The position numbers and the translations under genes are program-made. A stretch of 5,698 nt of DNA from a virus. Every line of letters starts with the position of its first letter. Position 1 is the first letter of the stretch. The notes beneath the pieces were generated by a model. The model made no database searches. It worked only from the letters and a program-made list of their open reading frames with translations, and was not told the DNA's origin. The stretch is from positions 1-5,698 of IMG/VR virus record IMGVR_UViG_3300045988_036782; one strand, given 5' to 3'. Positions 1 to 5,698 of this stretch are shown in pieces.

Positions 1-55
1 CAGCTGGCAGAGGCCGTCAGAAGCAGCAGCGCTCAGACCTCGACCACCAGAGAAA
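1..55. repeat. Terminal redundancy (left copy), identical to 5644-5698; signature of a circular molecule assembled with overlap
   Basis: Base-by-base comparison: cagctggcagaggccgtcagaagcagcagcgctcagacctcgaccaccagagaaa occurs at both 1-55 and 5644-5698. Confidence 0.97.
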
Positions 56-132
56 GCACCGACAGCAAACAGGTCAACGTAAGCGGTGAACTGTCCGGGG
101 AATGGACGAACAAAAAAGACCGCAGAAGATAG
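1..132 (+). CDS. C-terminal end of VP2 (DNA pilot/minor capsid protein), continuing from 4849-5643 on the circle; stop TAG at 130-132
   Basis: Frame 1 is open from base 1 (QLAEAVRSSSAQTSTTRESTDSKQVNVSGELSGEWTNKKDRRR*). Base 1 equals 5644, which is a codon start in the VP2 frame, so the ORF closes to 308 aa. Confidence 0.85.
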   Translation, partial: QLAEAVRSSSAQTSTTRESTDSKQVNVSGELSGEWTNKKDRRR

Positions 133-161
133 TTGACAAACACAGAAAAGAGGTGTATATT
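133..161 (+). promoter_or_regulatory. Sigma70-type promoter P1: TTGACA (133-138), 17-nt spacer, TATATT (156-161)
   Basis: Perfect -35 hexamer, optimal 17-nt spacer and a 5/6 match in the -10 hexamer. It starts directly after the VP2 stop and lies about 40 nt upstream of the RHH gene and its AGGAGG ribosome-binding site (RBS). Confidence 0.7.
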
Positions 162-171
162 ATGAGTGTAC
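152..171 (+). promoter_or_regulatory. Two direct GTGTA boxes (153-157, 166-170) 13 nt apart, overlapping and following the P1 -10; candidate operator
   Basis: The two sites read GGTGTAT and AGTGTAC. The same box sits at the same offset from the -10 hexamer in P2. Confidence 0.45.
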
Positions 172-202
172 TAATCACACACTTGGCTACAGGAGGATAA
201 CC

Positions 203-415
203 ATGAGAAGTCAAATCACAAAACGATTCAATATCAACCTGACGGAGAAAGAACAGGCAGCACTGGAAAACCTGAAAAAAGAATATGCAAACCGAAACTG
301 GAAAGCAAACACTTCAGACATCATCCGAGACGCTATCGTATACTACAGCGAAAAGATGACGGACTATAAAATTGCAGCAGAGGCAATCAGCGAAGAGGAA
401 GACTTGCCCTTCTAA
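203..415 (+). CDS. Ribbon-helix-helix (CopG/Arc/MetJ-type) DNA-binding protein, 70 aa
   Basis: AGGAGG at 191-196, 6 nt before the ATG. The N-terminus KRFNINLTEKEQAALENLKKEYA...TSDIIRDAIVYY fits the RHH pattern: a basic residue plus an alternating beta-strand, helix 1, a loop, then helix 2. The C-terminal tail is acidic. Confidence 0.72.
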   Translation: MRSQITKRFNINLTEKEQAALENLKKEYANRNWKANTSDIIRDAIVYYSEKMTDYKIAAEAISEEEDLPF

Positions 416-420
416 GAGAC

Positions 421-448
421 GATTTTGCCGGGGAGACCCGGCCAAATC
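421..448 (+). repeat. Hairpin: GATTTTGCCGGG / GAGA loop / CCCGGCCAAATC (12-bp stem, one T-C mismatch)
   Basis: Read directly from the sequence. It starts 6 nt after the RHH stop. No adjacent T-tract, so it is not a canonical intrinsic terminator. Confidence 0.6.
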
Positions 449-495
449 TGCAACATTTATCCATAGGTTTTTTTGAGAAAATGCTAAATTTTGTG

Positions 496-540
496 TCAGT
501 GGGCCCCTATAACATCAAGAGGGTTATAGGGGCCCACTGA
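496..540 (+). repeat. Perfect 18-bp inverted repeat with a 9-nt loop (TCAGTGGGCCCCTATAAC / atcaagagg / GTTATAGGGGCCCACTGA)
   Basis: The arms 496-513 and 523-540 are exact reverse complements. It ends 21 nt upstream of the rep ATG and overlaps the start of the GAGGAAAGG Shine-Dalgarno (SD)-like tract. Confidence 0.9.
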
Positions 541-561
541 GGAAAGGCGCAGCGAAACTAT

Positions 562-1671
562 ATGTCATGTACGAGACCGCTCGTCAGGATACCGACAAGC
601 GACGGTGATTTCCGCGTAGTGAGCCTAAAAGGATACTTAAGCCACAGCGGAAAAAACCTCGAATTTATCGCAGACAAAGAGCGTCAAGATCTGAACGAGA
701 AAAAAATCAAAGAGCTGCTGAAAGCTCAAGAAGCGCAGTTGCTACCATGCGGACAATGCCCGGGATGCAAAATGGCAGCAGCATCCAGCTGGGCAAACCG
801 AATGGAGCTAGAGCTACCATACCATCAAAATGCGTGGTTCATTACATTTACATACGATGATGACAATATACCATACCGAATGACCTGGGACGAAGGCACA
901 GGCGAAATACTGGTAGAAAATTACAGTCTGCGGTATGAAGATATGCAAAAGTTCTGGAAACGTCTCAGAAGATACTTGGAATATCACAAGATAAACAACG
1001 GAAAACTGATGTACTTCCAGTGTGGTGAATATGGTGGAAAAACACACAGACCGCATTATCATGCGATCGTGTACGACATACCATTCACCAAAGAAGACCT
1101 AAAGGTCTACAAAAAGAAAAACGGCGCTGTATACTACAACGTCGATTGGTTCACAGAATTATGGGGCATGGGCCATGTGGTCATCGCAGCAGCAGAGTGG
1201 AAAGCAATGGCATACACAGCAAGATACACCACAAAAAAGGTATACGGAAAGGAAGGCAAAGAATTTTACAAAGAGCTGGGAATACTACCTGAAAAGTGTA
1301 ACATGAGCACAAGACCAGCAATCGGAGCAAAATATTTTGAAGAACATAGCGAAGAAATCTATGCAAAAGACAAAATCCAGCTGAAGAACGGAAAAGTTTG
1401 CAAACCTCCAAGATACTTTGATAAACTATACGATGCACAGTGTCTTAGAAAACCACTCTCAGACAAAGAGGTAGAAGACATTGAGCTAGTAATAGAAAAA
1501 GCCGAGTCCGATGAGCTCAAAGCAATAAAGAGAAAACGTCGCAAGTTAGCAAACGACGCACTCTTCGCCAAGCTCAAACAGAACAACGGCTTAACCATGC
1601 AAGAATATTATAACAAAGAGGAACAGAAAATACAAGACAGGTTCAAAAAACTCATCCGGGAAGAAATCTAA
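562..1671 (+). CDS. Replication initiator protein VP4 (HUH rolling-circle endonuclease, phiX174 gpA-like), 369 aa
   Basis: Motif 1 FITFTY (838-855). HUH motif PHYHAIVY (HYH at 1054-1062). Catalytic Tyr motif YTARYTTKK (1213-1239). Gokushovirus-typical N-terminus MSCTRP and Cys cluster LPCGQCPGCK. Confidence 0.92.
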   Translation: MSCTRPLVRIPTSDGDFRVVSLKGYLSHSGKNLEFIADKERQDLNEKKIKELLKAQEAQLLPCGQCPGCKMAAASSWANRMELELPYHQNAWFITFTYDDDNIPYRMTWDEGTGEILVENYSLRYEDMQKFWKRLRRYLEYHKINNGKLMYFQCGEYGGKTHRPHYHAIVYDIPFTKEDLKVYKKKNGAVYYNVDWFTELWGMGHVVIAAAEWKAMAYTARYTTKKVYGKEGKEFYKELGILPEKCNMSTRPAIGAKYFEEHSEEIYAKDKIQLKNGKVCKPPRYFDKLYDAQCLRKPLSDKEVEDIELVIEKAESDELKAIKRKRRKLANDALFAKLKQNNGLTMQEYYNKEEQKIQDRFKKLIREEI

Positions 1672-1695
1672 GGAACGGCTAAATAAGGAAATGCA

Positions 1696-1730
1696 GACGG
1701 CGTGACATCGAAAGGCTGCGCCGTCCTTTT
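1696..1730 (+). terminator. Possible intrinsic terminator after rep: GACGGCG (1696-1702) / CGCCGTC (1719-1725), then CTTTT
   Basis: 7-bp GC-rich stem, a 16-nt loop and a short T-tract (1727-1730), 25 nt after the rep stop. Weak by canonical criteria. Confidence 0.4.
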
Positions 1731-1733
1731 CAT

Positions 1734-1750
1734 TCGGCGCACCGCGCCGA
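1734..1750 (+). repeat. Small GC hairpin TCGGCGC / acc / GCGCCGA
   Basis: 7-bp perfect stem with a 3-nt loop. Part of a GC-rich structured island (1696-1760) inside an AT-rich region. Confidence 0.6.
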
Positions 1751-1777
1751 CCGGACGGCCTCAAACTCAAAAAGTGC

Positions 1778-1806
1778 TTGACAAGTGTATGTTTTAAGTG
1801 TATAAT
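1778..1806 (+). promoter_or_regulatory. Sigma70 consensus promoter P2: TTGACA (1778-1783), 17-nt spacer, TATAAT (1801-1806)
   Basis: 12/12 match to the consensus hexamers with the optimal spacer. It lies 28 nt upstream of the ATG at 1834. Confidence 0.82.
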
Positions 1807-1816
1807 AAAGGTGTAG
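1784..1816 (+). promoter_or_regulatory. Three direct GTGTA boxes at 1785, 1798 and 1811 (13-nt register) spanning the spacer, -10 and +1 region of P2; candidate operator
   Basis: The sites read AGTGTAT, AGTGTAT and GGTGTAG. A degenerate fourth copy (GGTGC) sits near 1824. Confidence 0.5.
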
Positions 1817-1833
1817 AAAGGACGGTGCTTAAA

Positions 1834-2016
1834 ATGACCGACATTGAAAAAATCAAAAAGAGCATCCAGAACCAGATAGAACAACAGGAAAGAAACTACT
1901 ACAAAGACCTTAAGAGCAAAGCAAAGCACACAGACGGAACGGAGATGTACAAAGTAGACAACCACAAAATCGAAGCGCTGGAAACAGCACTGAGAATAAT
2001 CGAAATGTATGAATAA
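1834..2016 (+). CDS. Hypothetical 60-aa protein, probably helical, no family recognised
   Basis: ATG at 1834 preceded by AAAGGA (1817-1822). It has its own consensus promoter and a downstream terminator. The track start at 1798 is a GTG inside the promoter -10 region, upstream of the expected transcription start. Confidence 0.6.
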   Translation: MTDIEKIKKSIQNQIEQQERNYYKDLKSKAKHTDGTEMYKVDNHKIEALETALRIIEMYE

Positions 2017-2023
2017 ACCAAAA

Positions 2024-2066
2024 AACGTGAGGTTGACGAAATTCAGCCTTGCGTTTTTTTTTTTTT
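2024..2066 (+). terminator. Rho-independent terminator: extended stem 2024-2036 / 2043-2055 (includes G-U wobbles), then a T13 run (2054-2066)
   Basis: AACGTGAGGTTGA / cgaaat / TCAGCCTTGCGTT followed by 13 consecutive T. It starts 8 nt after the 60-aa ORF stop. Confidence 0.75.
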
Positions 2067-2112
2067 GGTAAAATTGACATAGAGAGCCAGCACCACAAAA
2101 CGAAAGGAGAAA

Positions 2113-2130
2113 AGCACTGCCTCCAGTGCT
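2113..2130 (+). repeat. Hairpin AGCACTG / cctc / CAGTGCT in the leader of the late gene block
   Basis: 7-bp perfect stem with a 4-nt loop, read directly. Confidence 0.6.
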
Positions 2131-2185
2131 GGCGATCTGTGCTTCAAACCATTTACACAAATCTGAAAAGAAAGGAGGTGCTGCC

Positions 2186-2290
2186 ATGATCACTATCAAA
2201 GACGTAAAGGGTATCTTTAATCAACTGCGCAAGATTTTGGCCATGCTGGATAAAATTTACCACACACTCAACCTAAATAAGGAGGAATAA
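2186..2290 (+). CDS. Hypothetical 34-aa protein (MITIKDVKGIFNQLRKILAMLDKIYHTLNLNKEE)
   Basis: Strong RBS AAAGGAGGTG (2171-2180), 5 nt before the ATG. The stop TAA (2288-2290) is 1 nt before the next ATG, suggesting translational coupling. Below the track length cutoff. Confidence 0.5.
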   Translation: MITIKDVKGIFNQLRKILAMLDKIYHTLNLNKEE

Positions 2291-2291
2291 T

Positions 2292-2411
2292 ATGGCACAT
2301 CGTATGCCGGTCAACCCGAAAAAGGACAAGCGAGTGTTTACCAACACCGCGAAGAAAACCAAGAAGATCAACGTCAATCCGAAGCCGTCGAGGGGCGGGA
2401 TCCGACTGTAA
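2292..2411 (+). CDS. Small basic DNA-binding/packaging protein, J/VP8 (ORF8)-like, 39 aa
   Basis: MAHRMPVNPKKDKRVFTNTAKKTKKINVNPKPSRGGIRL has 12 K/R in 39 residues. The C-terminal RGGIRL resembles the RGG-basic tail of gokushovirus ORF8 peptides such as SpV4 ORF8. RBS AAGGAGGA at 2279-2286. Confidence 0.7.
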   Translation: MAHRMPVNPKKDKRVFTNTAKKTKKINVNPKPSRGGIRL

Positions 2412-2423
2412 AGGAGAAACAAT

Positions 2424-2507
2424 ATGGTAGACATCCTGCAGAGCACAGCAATCGTGCTCATCGCCGCATACATCATCATGAACGAGATCAGAAATTGGAG
2501 GAAGTAA
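2424..2507 (+). CDS. 27-aa single-pass transmembrane peptide (MVDILQSTAIVLIAAYIIMNEIRNWRK)
   Basis: RBS AAGGAGA (2411-2417), 6 nt before the ATG. A hydrophobic core is followed by a basic tail. The stop TAA (2505-2507) is 1 nt before the next ATG. Confidence 0.5.
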   Translation: MVDILQSTAIVLIAAYIIMNEIRNWRK

Positions 2508-2508
2508 G

Positions 2509-2772
2509 ATGGAATATCAGGTTTACGCAATCAAGGATGAACTGGCAGGAACCTTCGGCAATCTCATGGTAGTCAACGAGAAGGTGGCCGATCGGACGAT
2601 GAAGTGGATGGCCCAGGAGATGGAGAAGGCCGACTGCGAGGATAAACGAGTCTATCTGCTGGGCAGCTACGACAACGAAACCGGACTGATCAGACCGGAG
2701 CAGATGCCGCATCTGAGCTACAATCTCGAGCTGATGAAAAAGGAGCAGACGAATGGGAGTCAGAATCTTTAA
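2509..2772 (+). CDS. VP5-like conserved gokushovirus non-structural protein, 87 aa
   Basis: RBS GGAGG (2496-2500). The N-terminus YAIKDELAGTFGNLMVV and the later YLLGSYDNETGLI match the pattern I recall for this small gokushovirus family (x-Y/F-x-I-x-D-x-K-A ... L-x-x-G-x-F/Y-D-x-x-T-G). It occupies the syntenic position before VP3. Confidence 0.6.
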   Translation: MEYQVYAIKDELAGTFGNLMVVNEKVADRTMKWMAQEMEKADCEDKRVYLLGSYDNETGLIRPEQMPHLSYNLELMKKEQTNGSQNL

Positions 2773-3250
2773 ACCCTACGAGGACGAAAAACCTGTTGCG
2801 CTGCCGAACGAACCGGGAAACCGGTATGAACCGGAGTACAAAGAGCGCTATGATGACCGCGGCCAACCGTACCTTGAAAAGGTCGGTGAGGTGGACACCT
2901 ACGAAAAAATCCAGAGTTACAAAGACGAATGCGACGTTATGGCAATCCTGAGCCGGTACGCTGCCGGAGACGAGAGCGTTTTGGCAAAACCGGGCTGGTA
3001 CATCGATACGAGCCGTCTGCCGCAGACCTATACCGAGTATATGAACCTGATGAACGAGAGGCGGGAAGAGTTTAACCAGCTGCCACTGAGCATCCGTCAG
3101 GCATTCGGCATGAACTTCGAAAACTGGATAGCAACAGCCGGTGAGCAGGAATGGCTGGATAAGATGGGCATCAAAATTCAGCAGAATGAACAAAAGAAGG
3201 ACGATGCTGCCATTGAGACTGTTCTGCAGAAAGGAGAAAATAAGGAATGA
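2753..3250 (+). CDS. Internal scaffolding protein VP3 (Chlamy_scaf-like), 165 aa
   Basis: RBS GGAG (2742-2745). Size, position immediately upstream of VP1, and motifs (DTYEKIQSYKDECDVMAILSRYAAGDESVL; acidic/charged C-terminus) are typical of gokushovirus VP3. Overlaps the upstream ORF by 20 nt and VP1 by ATGA. Confidence 0.8.
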   Translation: MGVRIFKPYEDEKPVALPNEPGNRYEPEYKERYDDRGQPYLEKVGEVDTYEKIQSYKDECDVMAILSRYAAGDESVLAKPGWYIDTSRLPQTYTEYMNLMNERREEFNQLPLSIRQAFGMNFENWIATAGEQEWLDKMGIKIQQNEQKKDDAAIETVLQKGENKE

Positions 3251-4836
3251 ACCGCAACGCTGAACAGCACTATTCTCAGGTGCCTCATGCAAACGTACCG
3301 CGAGCAAGGTTCAAAAGGGACTTTTCGCTCCTGACCACGATGAACGAAGGCGATCTCGTACCGATCTACTGTGATGAGGTGTTGCCGGCTGATACGGCAA
3401 AGATCGACCTGAATGCGCTGATGCGCATGAGTACGCCGCTGTATCCTGTTATGGATAACTGTTACTGTGATTTCTACTTCTTCTTCATTCCCGCACGTCT
3501 GCTCTGGGAGCACTTCGAAAACCTGATGGGCCAGAACGACTCTACCTTCTGGGCAGAGACCACGGAGTACACGACTCCGAAGACAACTGCACCAGAAGGC
3601 GGGTGGAACGTGGGAACGCTGGCAGATTACTTCGGCATACCGACCGGAGTAGCAAACCTTCAGGTGAACTCACTGCCGTTCCGCGCCTATGCCAAAGTGT
3701 GGAACGAATGGTTTAGAGACGAAAACCTGCAGCAGCCTGTCACGATGAGCAAGACGGACGCAACGACCACAGGCAGCAATACCGGCACGAAACTCACAGA
3801 CGCCGAAGCGGGCGGGCTGCCGCTCAAAGTGTGCAAGTACAAGGATTACTTCACGAGCTGCCTGCCGAGCCCGCAAAAGGGCGAAGCTGTAAAGTTGCCG
3901 ATGAGCGGAAACGCACCGGTGCTGGCATACCCCAAAGCAAACCGCGAAACTCCCGAAAATGGAAAATATCCTCAGGGTGGAATCAGCAGCTTGGAAAGCT
4001 ACCCGGCACTGATGGGTGTAGTAGGAACAACACCGACAGGAACGGCATACCTCGGCGCGAGACTCGACAAGATAACCGCAGCAACCATCAACGAGCTCAG
4101 ACAGGCCATCGCAGTGCAGCACATCTTGGAGCGTGACGCACGAACCGGAAGCCGGTACAAAGAATACCTTCAGGGAGCGTGGGGCGTGACGAGTCCTGAT
4201 GCACGTCTCGACCGATCAGAATACATCGGCGGCTACAGACTACCGATCAACATCAATCAGGTCATCCAGACCTCGGCGACCGACACGACGAGCCCGCAGG
4301 GCAACACGGCAGCGTTCAGCATGACGACCATGTCCCGGAACATGGCTACCTACTCGGCAACCGAACACGGCTTTATCCTCGGTCTGGCAGCAGTACGAGT
4401 TGATCACAGCTATCAGCAGGGCCTGTCTCGTATGTGGACGCGAAGCACTCGCTTTTCGTACTACGACCCGATGCTAGCAAACCTGGGGGAACAGGCGATT
4501 CTTAATCAGGAGATCTATGCACAAGGCACCGCACAGGACGAAGAAGTCTTTGGCTATCAGGAAGCCTGGGCCGATTACAGATACCGCACCAACATGATCA
4601 CCGGAGAAATGCGCAGCACCTACTCTAAGACTCTGGAGGCATGGCACTACGCGGACAAATACACAGAGCTGCCGAAGCTCTCCAGCGACTGGATCAAAGA
4701 AGGTACCGAAAACATCGACCGCACGATTGCAGTGCAGAGCGAAAACAGCCGTCAGTTTATCTGCAACTTTTATTTCGACCAGACATGGACGCGGGCAATG
4801 CCGATCTACAGCCTGCCGGGCCTTAATACGATCTAA
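3247..4836 (+). CDS. Major capsid protein VP1 (Microviridae F protein family), 529 aa
   Basis: Hallmark N-terminus (PRARFKRDFSLLTTMNEGDLVPIYCDEVLPADT), TINELRQAIAVQHILERDARTGSRYKEYLQGAWGV, and C-terminus FDQTWTRAMPIYSLPG. Start overlaps the VP3 stop (ATGA at 3247-3250). Confidence 0.96.
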   Translation: MNRNAEQHYSQVPHANVPRARFKRDFSLLTTMNEGDLVPIYCDEVLPADTAKIDLNALMRMSTPLYPVMDNCYCDFYFFFIPARLLWEHFENLMGQNDSTFWAETTEYTTPKTTAPEGGWNVGTLADYFGIPTGVANLQVNSLPFRAYAKVWNEWFRDENLQQPVTMSKTDATTTGSNTGTKLTDAEAGGLPLKVCKYKDYFTSCLPSPQKGEAVKLPMSGNAPVLAYPKANRETPENGKYPQGGISSLESYPALMGVVGTTPTGTAYLGARLDKITAATINELRQAIAVQHILERDARTGSRYKEYLQGAWGVTSPDARLDRSEYIGGYRLPININQVIQTSATDTTSPQGNTAAFSMTTMSRNMATYSATEHGFILGLAAVRVDHSYQQGLSRMWTRSTRFSYYDPMLANLGEQAILNQEIYAQGTAQDEEVFGYQEAWADYRYRTNMITGEMRSTYSKTLEAWHYADKYTELPKLSSDWIKEGTENIDRTIAVQSENSRQFICNFYFDQTWTRAMPIYSLPGLNTI

Positions 4837-4848
4837 GGGGGTGCAGCA

Positions 4849-5698
4849 ATGTCACTCACCTTGATGGGCCTGATCAAAGGCGGTCTGACTCTGGCAAGCA
4901 CGTTAGCCAGCATCTACAGCACCATCAAAGGCAGCACTTCGAGCGCACGACAGCAAGGCACTATGCAAAACACTGTCCAGAGCGGCACGACGATGGGAAC
5001 GACCGCACAGGATACTACAAGCACAGGCGGCAGCACTCAGACCGGCAACACAGGAGCACTGGGAAATCTACTGTCAACAGCACTCGGCACGCCGACCGGG
5101 AACAACGCAGGAGCAGCCGCAAACTTTAACGCCGGACAGGTGCAGACAGCCAACAATCTGCAAAACGGTATGTGGAGCCTGGGCAACGTCATCAACCTGG
5201 GAAGTATGCTGGCGTCCAACGCAATGAGTGCAGCAAGCCAAAGCAGCGCAATGCGGTACAACTCCAAAGAGGCCAAAGCTCAAAGAGACTGGCAAGAGCG
5301 TATGAGCAGCACCAGCTACCAGAGAGGCGTGGCAGACCTCAAAGCAGCAGGGCTCAATCCGGTACTGGCAGCATACAACGGCTTTGGAGCACAGACACCG
5401 TCAGGCGGGTACGGAAGCCTGGGCGGGGGTCAGACCTTCGGTCATACTCAGGCTATGGCAATACCGACGGCAAAAAATGCAACCATGCAAGCCATGTACG
5501 ATTATGGCAACAACACAGCTCAAATCGTAGAGAACTATCAAAACGCCATCAACAGCGCAAAACAATCGTCGGACTACCGGACAGCCGAACACCTTGAACA
5601 GATGCAGCAGCAGAGCGTAAGCAGCAGCGCTCAGACCGTGGGCCAGCTGGCAGAGGCCGTCAGAAGCAGCAGCGCTCAGACCTCGACCACCAGAGAAA
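4849..5698 (+). CDS. DNA pilot/minor capsid protein VP2 (H-like); open to the window end and completed by 56-132 on the circle (308 aa in total)
   Basis: RBS GGGGGTG (4837-4843), 5 nt before the ATG at 4849. Hydrophobic N-terminus, then a low-complexity G/T/S/Q/N region. Conserved gokushovirus VP2 motif WQERMSSTSYQRGVADLKAAGLNPVLA (about 5290-5370). Missing from the track because there is no in-window stop. Confidence 0.88.
   Translation, partial: MSLTLMGLIKGGLTLASTLASIYSTIKGSTSSARQQGTMQNTVQSGTTMGTTAQDTTSTGGSTQTGNTGALGNLLSTALGTPTGNNAGAAANFNAGQVQTANNLQNGMWSLGNVINLGSMLASNAMSAASQSSAMRYNSKEAKAQRDWQERMSSTSYQRGVADLKAAGLNPVLAAYNGFGAQTPSGGYGSLGGGQTFGHTQAMAIPTAKNATMQAMYDYGNNTAQIVENYQNAINSAKQSSDYRTAEHLEQMQQQSVSSSAQTVGQLAEAVRSSSAQTSTTRE
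5644..5698. repeat. Terminal redundancy (right copy), identical to 1-55
   Basis: Exact 55/55 match to the window start. Confidence 0.97.

Follow-up and report, generated by a model that had tools for sequence, protein, structure and literature searches.

Microviruses, the textbook minimal phages, are thought to run on constitutive promoters without a transcription factor of their own, and the DNA studied here raises the question of whether some of them depart from this scheme. This stretch of 5,698 nucleotides (nt), hereafter called the window, corresponds to positions 1 to 5,698 of the IMG/VR record IMGVR_UViG_3300045988_036782 and is a gokushovirus-like microvirus in which every gene lies on the + strand. 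Two of its promoters, P1 and P2, carry copies of the pentamer GTGTA in a common 13-nt register, and P1 precedes a gene (203-415) for a 70-amino-acid (aa) protein resembling the ribbon-helix-helix (RHH) repressor CopG. Are these GTGTA boxes operators, which protein would read them, and what would be placed under its control? A first-pass annotation had proposed that a single RHH repressor acts on both promoters and, by doing so, could silence the entire genome as a latency switch. Sequence comparison supports the boxes as real, phased, operator-like and under selection. We favor, with a probability of about 0.62, the reading in which they are the operators of the phage's own CopG-like RHH protein, which would exert feedback on its own synthesis and on that of the replication initiator Rep, and would shut off an accessory gene.

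Two promoters with a common register

In a promoter scan of the window, P1 (TTGACA-N17-TATATT, 133-161) and P2 (TTGACA-N17-TATAAT, 1778-1806) are the top two candidates, with 11/12 and 12/12 consensus matches, respectively, the runner-up (10/12) being on the minus strand. Both are predicted to be promoters of the sigma70/SigA type, with a spacing of 17 base pairs (bp) between the two hexamers and, downstream, a gene whose start codon is preceded by a ribosome-binding site (AGGAGG at 191-196 for P1 and GAAAGGA at 1816-1822 for P2). Their start sites were predicted from the distance to the -10 hexamer (~7 nt). The elements of both promoters, with their conservation in the relatives described below, are as follows.

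133-138, + strand: -35 hexamer of P1, TTGACA, from the promoter scan; conserved in 51 unique P1 sequences
153-157, + strand: P1 box 1, GTGTA, ending on the two bases that open the -10 hexamer TATATT (156-161); the block GGTGTATA is invariant in 51/51 unique P1 sequences
166-170, + strand: P1 box 2, GTGTA, 13 nt past box 1 and on the predicted start (~168); invariant in relatives
178-182, + strand: P1 inverted box, spelled CACAC in the window but TACAC in some relatives; AATC and ACAC form near-invariant columns
1778-1783, + strand: -35 hexamer of P2, TTGACA, from the promoter scan; 1.90 bits over 29 unique P2 sequences
1785-1789, + strand: P2 box a, GTGTA, in the promoter spacer and abutting the -35 hexamer; 1.88 bits
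1798-1802, + strand: P2 box b, GTGTA, running into the -10 hexamer TATAAT (1801-1806)
1811-1815, + strand: P2 box c, GTGTA, on the predicted start (~1813)

At both promoters, the -10 hexamer begins at the fourth base of a GTGTA and the next GTGTA follows 13 nt downstream, over the expected start. That the boxes coincide with core elements of P1 and P2, and do so in one shared register, argues for operators read by the RHH protein. In addition, P1 box 2 and the inverted box form a 17-bp near-palindrome, GTGTAnnAATCryACAC (166-182). Several relatives have a perfect TACAC at the inverted box, leading to GTGTA-N7-TACAC, an element which the first-pass annotation had overlooked. The coordinates that it had given for P1, P2 and all GTGTA copies were every one recovered by direct recount and by the promoter scan, as was the 13-nt register uniting five copies on two promoters (153/166 and 1785/1798/1811). 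Its view of P1 and P2 as the only near-consensus promoters holds insofar as they lead the scan, but a conserved extended -10 promoter, P3 (2066-2074), was missed by the reader and the scan alike.

A genome-wide count places GTGTA at 153, 166, 1069, 1296, 1785, 1798, 1811 and 4016 on the + strand, in agreement with the earlier statement that only three copies (1069, 1296 and 4016) lie elsewhere than on the two promoters, and at five more sites on the minus strand. Two of these three copies, at 1069-1073 and 1296-1300, are located within rep codons, the former spanning codons I-V-Y of the HYHAIVYD motif. As they recur at the same rep codon positions in relatives, they are explained by protein coding and not by operator function.

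The eight + strand copies compare with 2.1 expected (p ~0.001), and three or more pairs of GTGTA sharing a spacing (any spacing from 5 to 30) were obtained in 0/5000 dinucleotide shuffles, the shuffle maximum being 1. The shuffling on which the first-pass annotation had staked the phasing is thus clear-cut for GTGTA itself, but when any 5-mer at any spacing from 6 to 30 is allowed, 35/1000 shuffles reach three pairs (p ~0.035). Since the pentamer was picked after looking at the sequence, the phasing is, from the window alone, only modestly significant and at best suggestive.

Conservation of the boxes among relatives

While the statistics of the window alone are modest, the comparative data settle the phasing of the boxes. 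Relatives were retrieved by protein and never by boxes, yielding 8 loci with the 70-aa protein, 33 and then 75 loci with Rep, and four GenBank genomes. A second set of 26 metagenome contigs was retrieved by a peptide pattern rather than a DNA pattern. Fifty-eight genomes, with Rep proteins 47-98% identical, encode a homologue of the 70-aa RHH protein, and at least one GTGTA-N8-GTGTA pair is present in 58/58 of them, on the + strand in every case and on the - strand in none. For the 54 genomes in which its position was determined, the P1 pair precedes the start codon of the RHH gene by 47-63 nt. Similarly, the P1 core is carried by 26/26 metagenome contigs, and the three-box P2 by 14/26. The conservation of the boxes, for which the first-pass annotation had looked to related genomes, therefore extends to every RHH-encoding member of both sets. 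Neither the RHH protein nor any phased GTGTA pair is found in 21 distant microviruses with Rep proteins 27-42% identical.

The spacing itself is equally constrained. Among 39 related genomes, the + strand GTGTA spacings within 5-40 nt are 13 nt (82 times), 26 nt (20 times) and 36 nt (once); in the 26 metagenome contigs they are 13 nt (56 times) and 26 nt (15 times), with four others. Taken together, the 51 unique P1 sequences show virtually no variation in the block GGTGTATAwTATGrGTGTAnnAATCryACAC, the upstream spacer and the downstream leader being free to vary. Two relatives (L052 and L140) have three-box versions of P1, and the divergent L138 combines box a, box 1 and an inverted TACAC located, as in P1, at +25 from box 1.

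P2 forms a portable three-box promoter-operator cassette, TTGACAAGTGTAT-N5-AGGTGTATAATAAAGGTGTAGAAAGG, which is present in 30-31/58 genomes and lacking in 27/58, as judged by its -10/start-box motif. It always stands ahead of a small hypervariable open reading frame (ORF) belonging to one of at least eight unrelated families. Where there is no accessory ORF, P2 is either absent, decaying (TTAACA, GTGCA and ATGTA in L003) or abutting the terminator (L028). Over the 29 unique P2 sequences, box a retains 1.88 bits, close to the 1.90 bits of the -35 hexamer, and the rest of the spacer 1.29 bits. Because box a is conserved within a spacer where the polymerase reads no bases, its selection is not explained by RNA polymerase. 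Two relatives (L019 and L013) have a fourth P2 box at exactly +13.

The ribbon-helix-helix protein

The genes lying behind P1 and P2 are the following.

203-415, + strand: 70-aa CopG-like RHH protein, candidate box-binding repressor, with the C-terminal tail EEEDLPF
562-1671, + strand: replication initiator gene rep (VP4), Pfam PF23343 REP_ORF2-G2P, E 4.5e-15
1834-2016, + strand: 60-aa orphan accessory ORF behind P2, with no significant Pfam match (sub-threshold only) and no PHROG match

Aligned by hhalign, the profile of the RHH family matches CopG of pMV158 with 86.5% probability (E 4.5e-6) over the strand and both helices. A profile search of the PDB ranked TTHA0139 first and CopG second, both being weak matches (E ~0.1), and Pfam RHH_1 recognizes 6/34 family members. 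The AlphaFold2 model of the monomer comprises an extended N-terminus and helices at residues 15-30 and 37-53, with a mean predicted local distance difference test (pLDDT) score of 79. RHH proteins act as intertwined dimers, the two-stranded sheet of which reads repeated operator sub-sites in the major groove; candidate sub-sites of this repeated kind are present at P1 and P2. The order P1-RHH-rep is maintained in 58/58 relatives. The match to the CopG profile, together with an RHH gene directly upstream of rep, as copG precedes repB, supports the homology-based assignment of the 70-aa ORF as a CopG-like RHH protein. Clustered at 50% identity, the family is tiny, with 40 clusters in a collection of 1.84 billion proteins, and every genomic context that was examined proved to be a microvirus.

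Over their first 55 residues, the RHH proteins share a mean identity of 58% with a minimum of 37%. Near-invariance is seen at five strand positions (R8, N10, N12, L13 and T14) and at R42 within the conserved helix-2 motif SDIIRDAI, and the DNA-reading strand as a whole, KRxN[IV]NLT (K/R-R-x-N-I/V-N-L-T), is near-invariant. R8, N10 and N12 align with CopG residues which we take to be base-contacting. The operator is invariant and so is the reading head, while the remainder of the protein drifts, which is the pattern expected of one repressor and its operator.

Divergent members of the family were also informative. A member with 29% identity (P0098) is preceded by TTGACA-AGTGTA-N8-GTGTATATT with TACAC at +25, and another with 34% identity (P0097) by three direct boxes and GTACAC. 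A distant homologue with the strand KKITINIS is encoded at 1560-1814 of L137, an AT-rich microvirus, after rep and in the accessory slot; it lies behind a consensus-like promoter devoid of GTGTA, and no RHH gene occurs within the 312 nt upstream of rep on this partial contig. Conservation of the boxes in the first two cases and their absence in the third were counted as covariation between protein and operator.

The C-terminus of the RHH protein (395-415 of the window) reads ...ISEEEDLPF and resembles the tip of Gram-positive SSB (the protein that binds single-stranded DNA), DDDLPF. Such an acidic SSB-like tail occurs in 12/58 genomes, the others being without it, and similar tails (EEDELPF, DDDDLPY, DDDDDLPF and DDNLPF; noted for L022 and L033) are found in at least three otherwise different RHH subfamilies. 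The SSB tip is a docking peptide for replication and repair proteins. In Streptococcus mutans, the LPF of this C-terminal docking peptide is a ClpXP degron (PMC5143411).

Proposed mechanism and its weak points

In the scan, no promoter or terminator was found on the + strand between the RHH gene and rep (415-562), but a very stable hairpin region (z = -5.4) lies between the two genes; rep may be co-transcribed with the RHH gene from P1. After conversion of the incoming single-stranded genome into double-stranded DNA, P1 would fire, placing RHH and Rep (VP4) on one transcript, and P2 would fire to give the small accessory protein. As RHH dimers accumulate, they would occupy the R-GTGTA boxes: at P1, over the -10 hexamer, over the start and at the inverted copy (~+11 to +15); at P2, beside the -35 hexamer, over the -10 hexamer and over the start. 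The occupied boxes would exclude RNA polymerase, resulting in negative feedback on RHH and Rep and in shut-off of the accessory gene, with P3 going on driving the structural genes. Both the binding of the RHH protein to the boxes and repression by this binding are presumed here. The fewest assumptions are needed if one repressor serves P1 and P2 alike, and the regulon suggested by the first-pass annotation is plausible in this restricted form: phased and conserved boxes do lie on P1 and P2 and the RHH ORF does lie between P1 and rep, but the extension to genome-wide latency is not supported.

Several points weigh against the RHH protein as the reader of the boxes. A period of 13 bp is no helical repeat, and those RHH repressors that have been characterized and bind cooperatively side by side use about one helical turn. 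The association of the RHH gene with the boxes coincides with clade membership and provides no phylogenetic independence; most of the IMG/VR relatives moreover come from one dataset, 3300045988, and the covariation between strand and operator in L137 is a single example, read from sequence. As all box-bearing genomes encode Rep too, it may itself play a role at the boxes. The protein of the window falls under the Pfam RHH_1 cut-off (13.9 vs 20.5 bits). Finally, its Foldseek neighbours in the PDB are mostly RHH proteins (CdbA and NikR ranked best, with ParD and Arc), none being significant (E > 1); for Foldseek, the RHH monomer is too small a protein, its fold forming only as a dimer.

Other explanations for the boxes

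The boxes might instead bind Rep, as iterons that also auto-repress in the manner of geminivirus Rep promoters, or a DNA-binding protein of the host. Short direct repeats at a non-helical period do resemble iterons, Rep accompanies them in all genomes, a candidate origin hairpin (496-540) lies between the RHH gene and rep, and the 17-bp near-palindrome of P1 would suit a dimeric host regulator. However, the boxes are 330 nt and more than 1200 nt away from this hairpin and are locked to promoter elements, and the second array moves with the accessory cassette rather than with a replication feature. Rep also diverges down to 47% identity across the clade, whereas the boxes are invariant, and it is the RHH strand that tracks the boxes, including the box-less L137. 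We know of no host regulator consensus that the boxes match. Overall, we consider that Rep or a host protein is unlikely to be the reader.

It is similarly improbable, in our estimation, that no regulator is involved and that the GTGTA register is intrinsic to the promoters, either as the template of strong promoters in the host or as the relic of a promoter duplication, maintained solely by the need for strong promoters. Two of the boxes coincide with the -10 hexamer and the start, which would be conserved anyway, and the three-box P1 of L052, L138 and L140 looks like P2, suggesting common ancestry. A search of 185,579 species-representative genomes with the 19-nt core of P1 also detected this core at apparent housekeeping promoters of Clostridia metagenome-assembled genomes, including that of a RecA-like gene (identities by eye). 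These 52 genome matches are nevertheless to be compared with ~69 expected by chance (our own estimate, for 17 fixed bases and 1.2e12 positions). As a control, 41 near-consensus promoters were taken, unselected, from 158 kb of Clostridial DNA from the loci of the 19-nt core matches: GTG abuts the -10 hexamer in 1/41 and GTGTA occurs at the start in 0/41, as opposed to TGn before the -10 hexamer in 29/41. The host pattern is therefore TGn-TATAAT and not GTG-TATAAT, and the boxes are not host promoter grammar. Furthermore, three kinds of box fall outside the base requirements of the polymerase and yet are conserved or recurrent: box a, the inverted one at +11 to +15, and the fourth box that occurs occasionally.

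The same kind of pattern scan returned a chromosome fragment of Levyibacteriota, a member of the candidate phyla radiation (CPR), in which an RHH-like ORF (by eye) follows a map gene (L094, 4690-4760). This ORF is preceded by TTGACA-GTGTGTA-N7-GTGTATATT-N4-GTGTA, with spacings of 12 and 13 nt. As it was found only through the pattern scan, it was treated as probably due to chance and not retained as a related operator.

A more elaborate proposal, which we regard as quite unlikely, places the RHH protein at the center of a minimal switch, either from early to late or into a carrier state. Through the SSB-like tail, the GTGTA-bound protein could link promoter shut-off with the recruitment of host replication proteins or with competition for them, or the tail could render the repressor unstable, its decay re-arming the phage.

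The latency switch of the first-pass annotation is, in our view, very improbable. According to this proposal, the RHH protein is a latency repressor and the shut-off of P1 and P2 would silence the whole genome, including the structural genes reached by read-through from P2, leading to a quiescent carrier or lysogenic state. The evidence from the boxes and the RHH protein applies to it equally, and repression of rep would indirectly limit copy number and hence the dosage of the late genes. The layout downstream of the accessory ORF is, however, at odds with the read-through step.

2017-2059, + strand: strong intrinsic terminator closing the P2 unit, with a 17-pair stem followed by a T-run; folding z = -4.5
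2066-2074, + strand: P3, extended -10 promoter TGGTAAAAT without a -35 hexamer and without GTGTA boxes; single match in the window

The terminator is conserved in position, its stem varying in sequence by clade with complementarity kept. In 54/58 relatives, the T-run is followed by T[GA]nTAn[AG]AT (TGnTAAAAT in most), giving the structural block an extended -10 promoter of its own that is free of boxes. Judged by its sequence, P3 is a canonical Gram-positive extended -10 promoter, and TGn precedes the -10 hexamer in 29/41 of the Clostridial control promoters described above. Given the terminator and the box-free P3, the structural genes would not be under direct control of the boxes, and the step of read-through and whole-genome silencing fails. 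P2 is, in addition, missing in about half of the relatives (27/58) and decayed where the accessory ORF is lacking (L003, L028). The claims that P2 drives the structural block by read-through and that one repressor could silence the entire genome are accordingly unsupported, the latter having no direct operator basis.

Searches for a dormant form of the virus gave no support either. None of the 52 matches of the 19-nt P1 core in the species-representative genomes carries an RHH or Rep gene (0/52), and no integrated copy was found among them. The metagenome loci with an RHH gene are all (26/26) genome-sized contigs of at most 6.2 kb, and neither an integrase nor a partition gene is present among the genes of the window (ORF list and Pfam). 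A single observation points the other way, a 48-kb ENA contig (L013) that joins a member of the clade to Firmicute-like plasmid or conjugative-element genes. On this contig (6100-6200 and 11800-11856), the phage is joined at the equivalent of window position 2095, its neighbours being FtsX/ABC-transporter, helix-turn-helix, DUF5720 and actin-like (ParM-type) genes. The other phage end runs into an Illumina adapter, AGATCGGAAGAGCACACGT, and the join may be an assembly chimera, which is plausible, or an integration. In the material searched, we thus found neither a maintained quiescent form nor operators on the structural genes, and the latency switch was not upheld.

An explanation at the RNA level was rejected, since the 5' leaders of P1 and P2 fold no better than shuffles (z ~0) and most boxes lie upstream of the start.

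Comparison with known regulatory systems

The closest parallel is copG-repB of pMV158, which has in common with the window an RHH protein of 45-70 aa encoded directly upstream of a rolling-circle initiator (PMC2724298). The target of CopG is a pseudo-symmetric element of 13 bp centered on the -35 region, with TGCA inverted repeats 5 bp apart, and its four sites follow one another at intervals of one helical turn along a single DNA face (PMC2724298). A common transcript carries copG and repB, and CopG both blocks and displaces the polymerase (PMC2724298). Upon arrival in a new cell, the repressor is lacking, which leads to a burst of Rep (PMC5717011). As proposed here for P1, the operator overlaps the strong promoter of the system, Pcr, and provides negative feedback on Rep synthesis (PMC2724298, PMC5717011). 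The operator architecture nevertheless differs from that of CopG-RepB: the putative operators of the window are non-palindromic R-GTGTA direct repeats every 13 bp over the -10 hexamer and +1, with one inverted copy. Unlike in pMV158, a second operator array stands on a separate accessory-gene promoter, and the replicon is a virus of the Microviridae rather than a plasmid. For an antisense RNA partner, no minus-strand promoter was detected in the scan of 415-562 and Rfam gave no match anywhere in the window, which is weak negative evidence.

In the omega (pSM19035, inc18) and ParG systems, a small RHH dimer reads short non-palindromic boxes arranged as direct and inverted arrays, with a non-helical period, on several promoters, and co-regulates copy-number and accessory functions. 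The non-helical 13-bp period, which is the main mechanistic oddity of the proposed module, recalls by analogy the heptad arrays of omega. However, omega heptads are contiguous 7-bp units in arrays of 7-10, as compared with two to four boxes at a 13-bp period here, and the window encodes no partition ATPase. No sequence similarity to omega or ParG appeared among the top PDB profile matches.

Arc and Mnt of phage P22 (immI) are also phage-encoded RHH repressors whose operators overlap promoter cores, and Arc and CopG have been presented as parallel systems (PMC2724298). Arc, in contrast, recognizes one operator of 21 bp whose TAGA boxes are inverted, and its phage is a large temperate one with double-stranded DNA, in which it regulates the expression of an antirepressor instead of a replication gene. 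Microviridae of the phiX174 type share with this virus the family, host sigma70-type promoters and intrinsic terminators. phiX174 itself has no transcription factor among its genes and relies on promoters that are constitutive and terminators that are leaky. In full-text literature searches, no paper describing an RHH protein, a repressor or an operator in a microvirus was found.

Collectively, these comparisons make plausible a CopG-like autoregulatory module, with an unusual direct-repeat operator and a portable second cassette, in a virus family from which no transcription factors are known. Such a factor appears to be common to an entire gut clade, comprising at least 58 genomes, with an operator more conserved than the protein and a second copy of it on a portable cassette whose promoter drives orphan genes of a hypervariable kind. 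If true, Microviridae would have their first described circuit of transcriptional control, and this would be a very small system for the reading of 13-bp-period direct repeats by RHH proteins. It would also offer a test of Rep dosage control as a principle common to rolling-circle plasmids and single-stranded-DNA phages, and a route to the function of swappable early accessory genes. On present evidence, it does not amount to a new latency mechanism.

Genome layout and the accessory slot

Bases 1-55 recur at 5644-5698 of the window, indicating that the genome is a circle of 5643 nt. Among GenBank records, Human gut gokushovirus SH-CHD10 (KX513873) comes nearest, with 89.6% identity, and its annotation comprises VP1-VP4 only. 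Besides the genes listed above, the window encodes three tiny ORFs, VP5 (Pfam Phage_ORF5), the VP3 scaffold and the VP1 capsid protein, the VP2 gene spanning the repeat at the window ends.

The slot following rep, which is occupied at 1834-2016 in the window, accommodates at least eight unrelated ORFs of 50-72 aa. Examples include MTDIEKIKK..., the AAALYDGGWR family, the Cys-rich DYRYEHCDGxCExCPC family, MTLKSYRIEM... and MKQWKFLAYVYY.... The accessory ORFs that were submitted to Pfam and PHROGs gave no significant match, all of them being orphans. In L020-L022, the slot holds a longer and different gene. One relative (L035) has lost exactly one 13-nt unit, TAATAAAGGTGTA, and with it the -10 hexamer of P2, the accessory ORF being intact; slippage or recombination between boxes is the likely origin of this deletion.

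A 12-nt complementarity was also noticed between 1718-1729 and 1817-1828 (GCGCCGTCCTTT and AAAGGACGGTGC), that is, between the hairpin region after rep and the ribosome-binding region of the P2 ORF. Such pairing could mask the ribosome-binding site of the P2 ORF in transcripts reading through from P1; it is not conserved in L011.

The region between the RHH gene and rep

The spacer at 416-561 folds far better than shuffles (z = -5.4) and contains a very stable hairpin region. A perfect 18-bp hairpin is located at 496-540. In relatives, its stem shows many compensatory changes, and L007 has a wholly different stem; the loop, ATCAAGAGG, is conserved despite this change of stem. As a sequence pattern, this hairpin is a candidate for a rolling-circle origin with its nick site or for a complementary-strand origin. 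Just past the RHH stop codon, a GC stem-loop (427-442, GCCGGG-GAGA-CCCGGC) is conserved as well, with a compensatory change in L021 (GACGGG...CCCGTC). As no T-run follows it, it is not an obvious terminator.

The terminator-P3 junction and its leader

Terminator and promoter appear fused at 2017-2074, with the T-run running directly into the conserved extended -10 of P3 in the 54 relatives mentioned above, and many IMG/VR contigs break exactly at this T-run. The leader of P3 (2083-2135) may form a stem, CCAGCAC/GTGCTGG, which reads CCGGCGCC/GGCGCCGG or CCAGAG/CTCTGG in relatives and encloses a GGAG/CTCC pair. RNAalifold instead pairs the invariant GCCTCC of this leader with the ribosome-binding site of the 34-aa ORF. 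Covariation in the P3 leader is modest, with 79.6% of cells paired, three pairs changed on both sides and 27/500 shuffles scoring as high.

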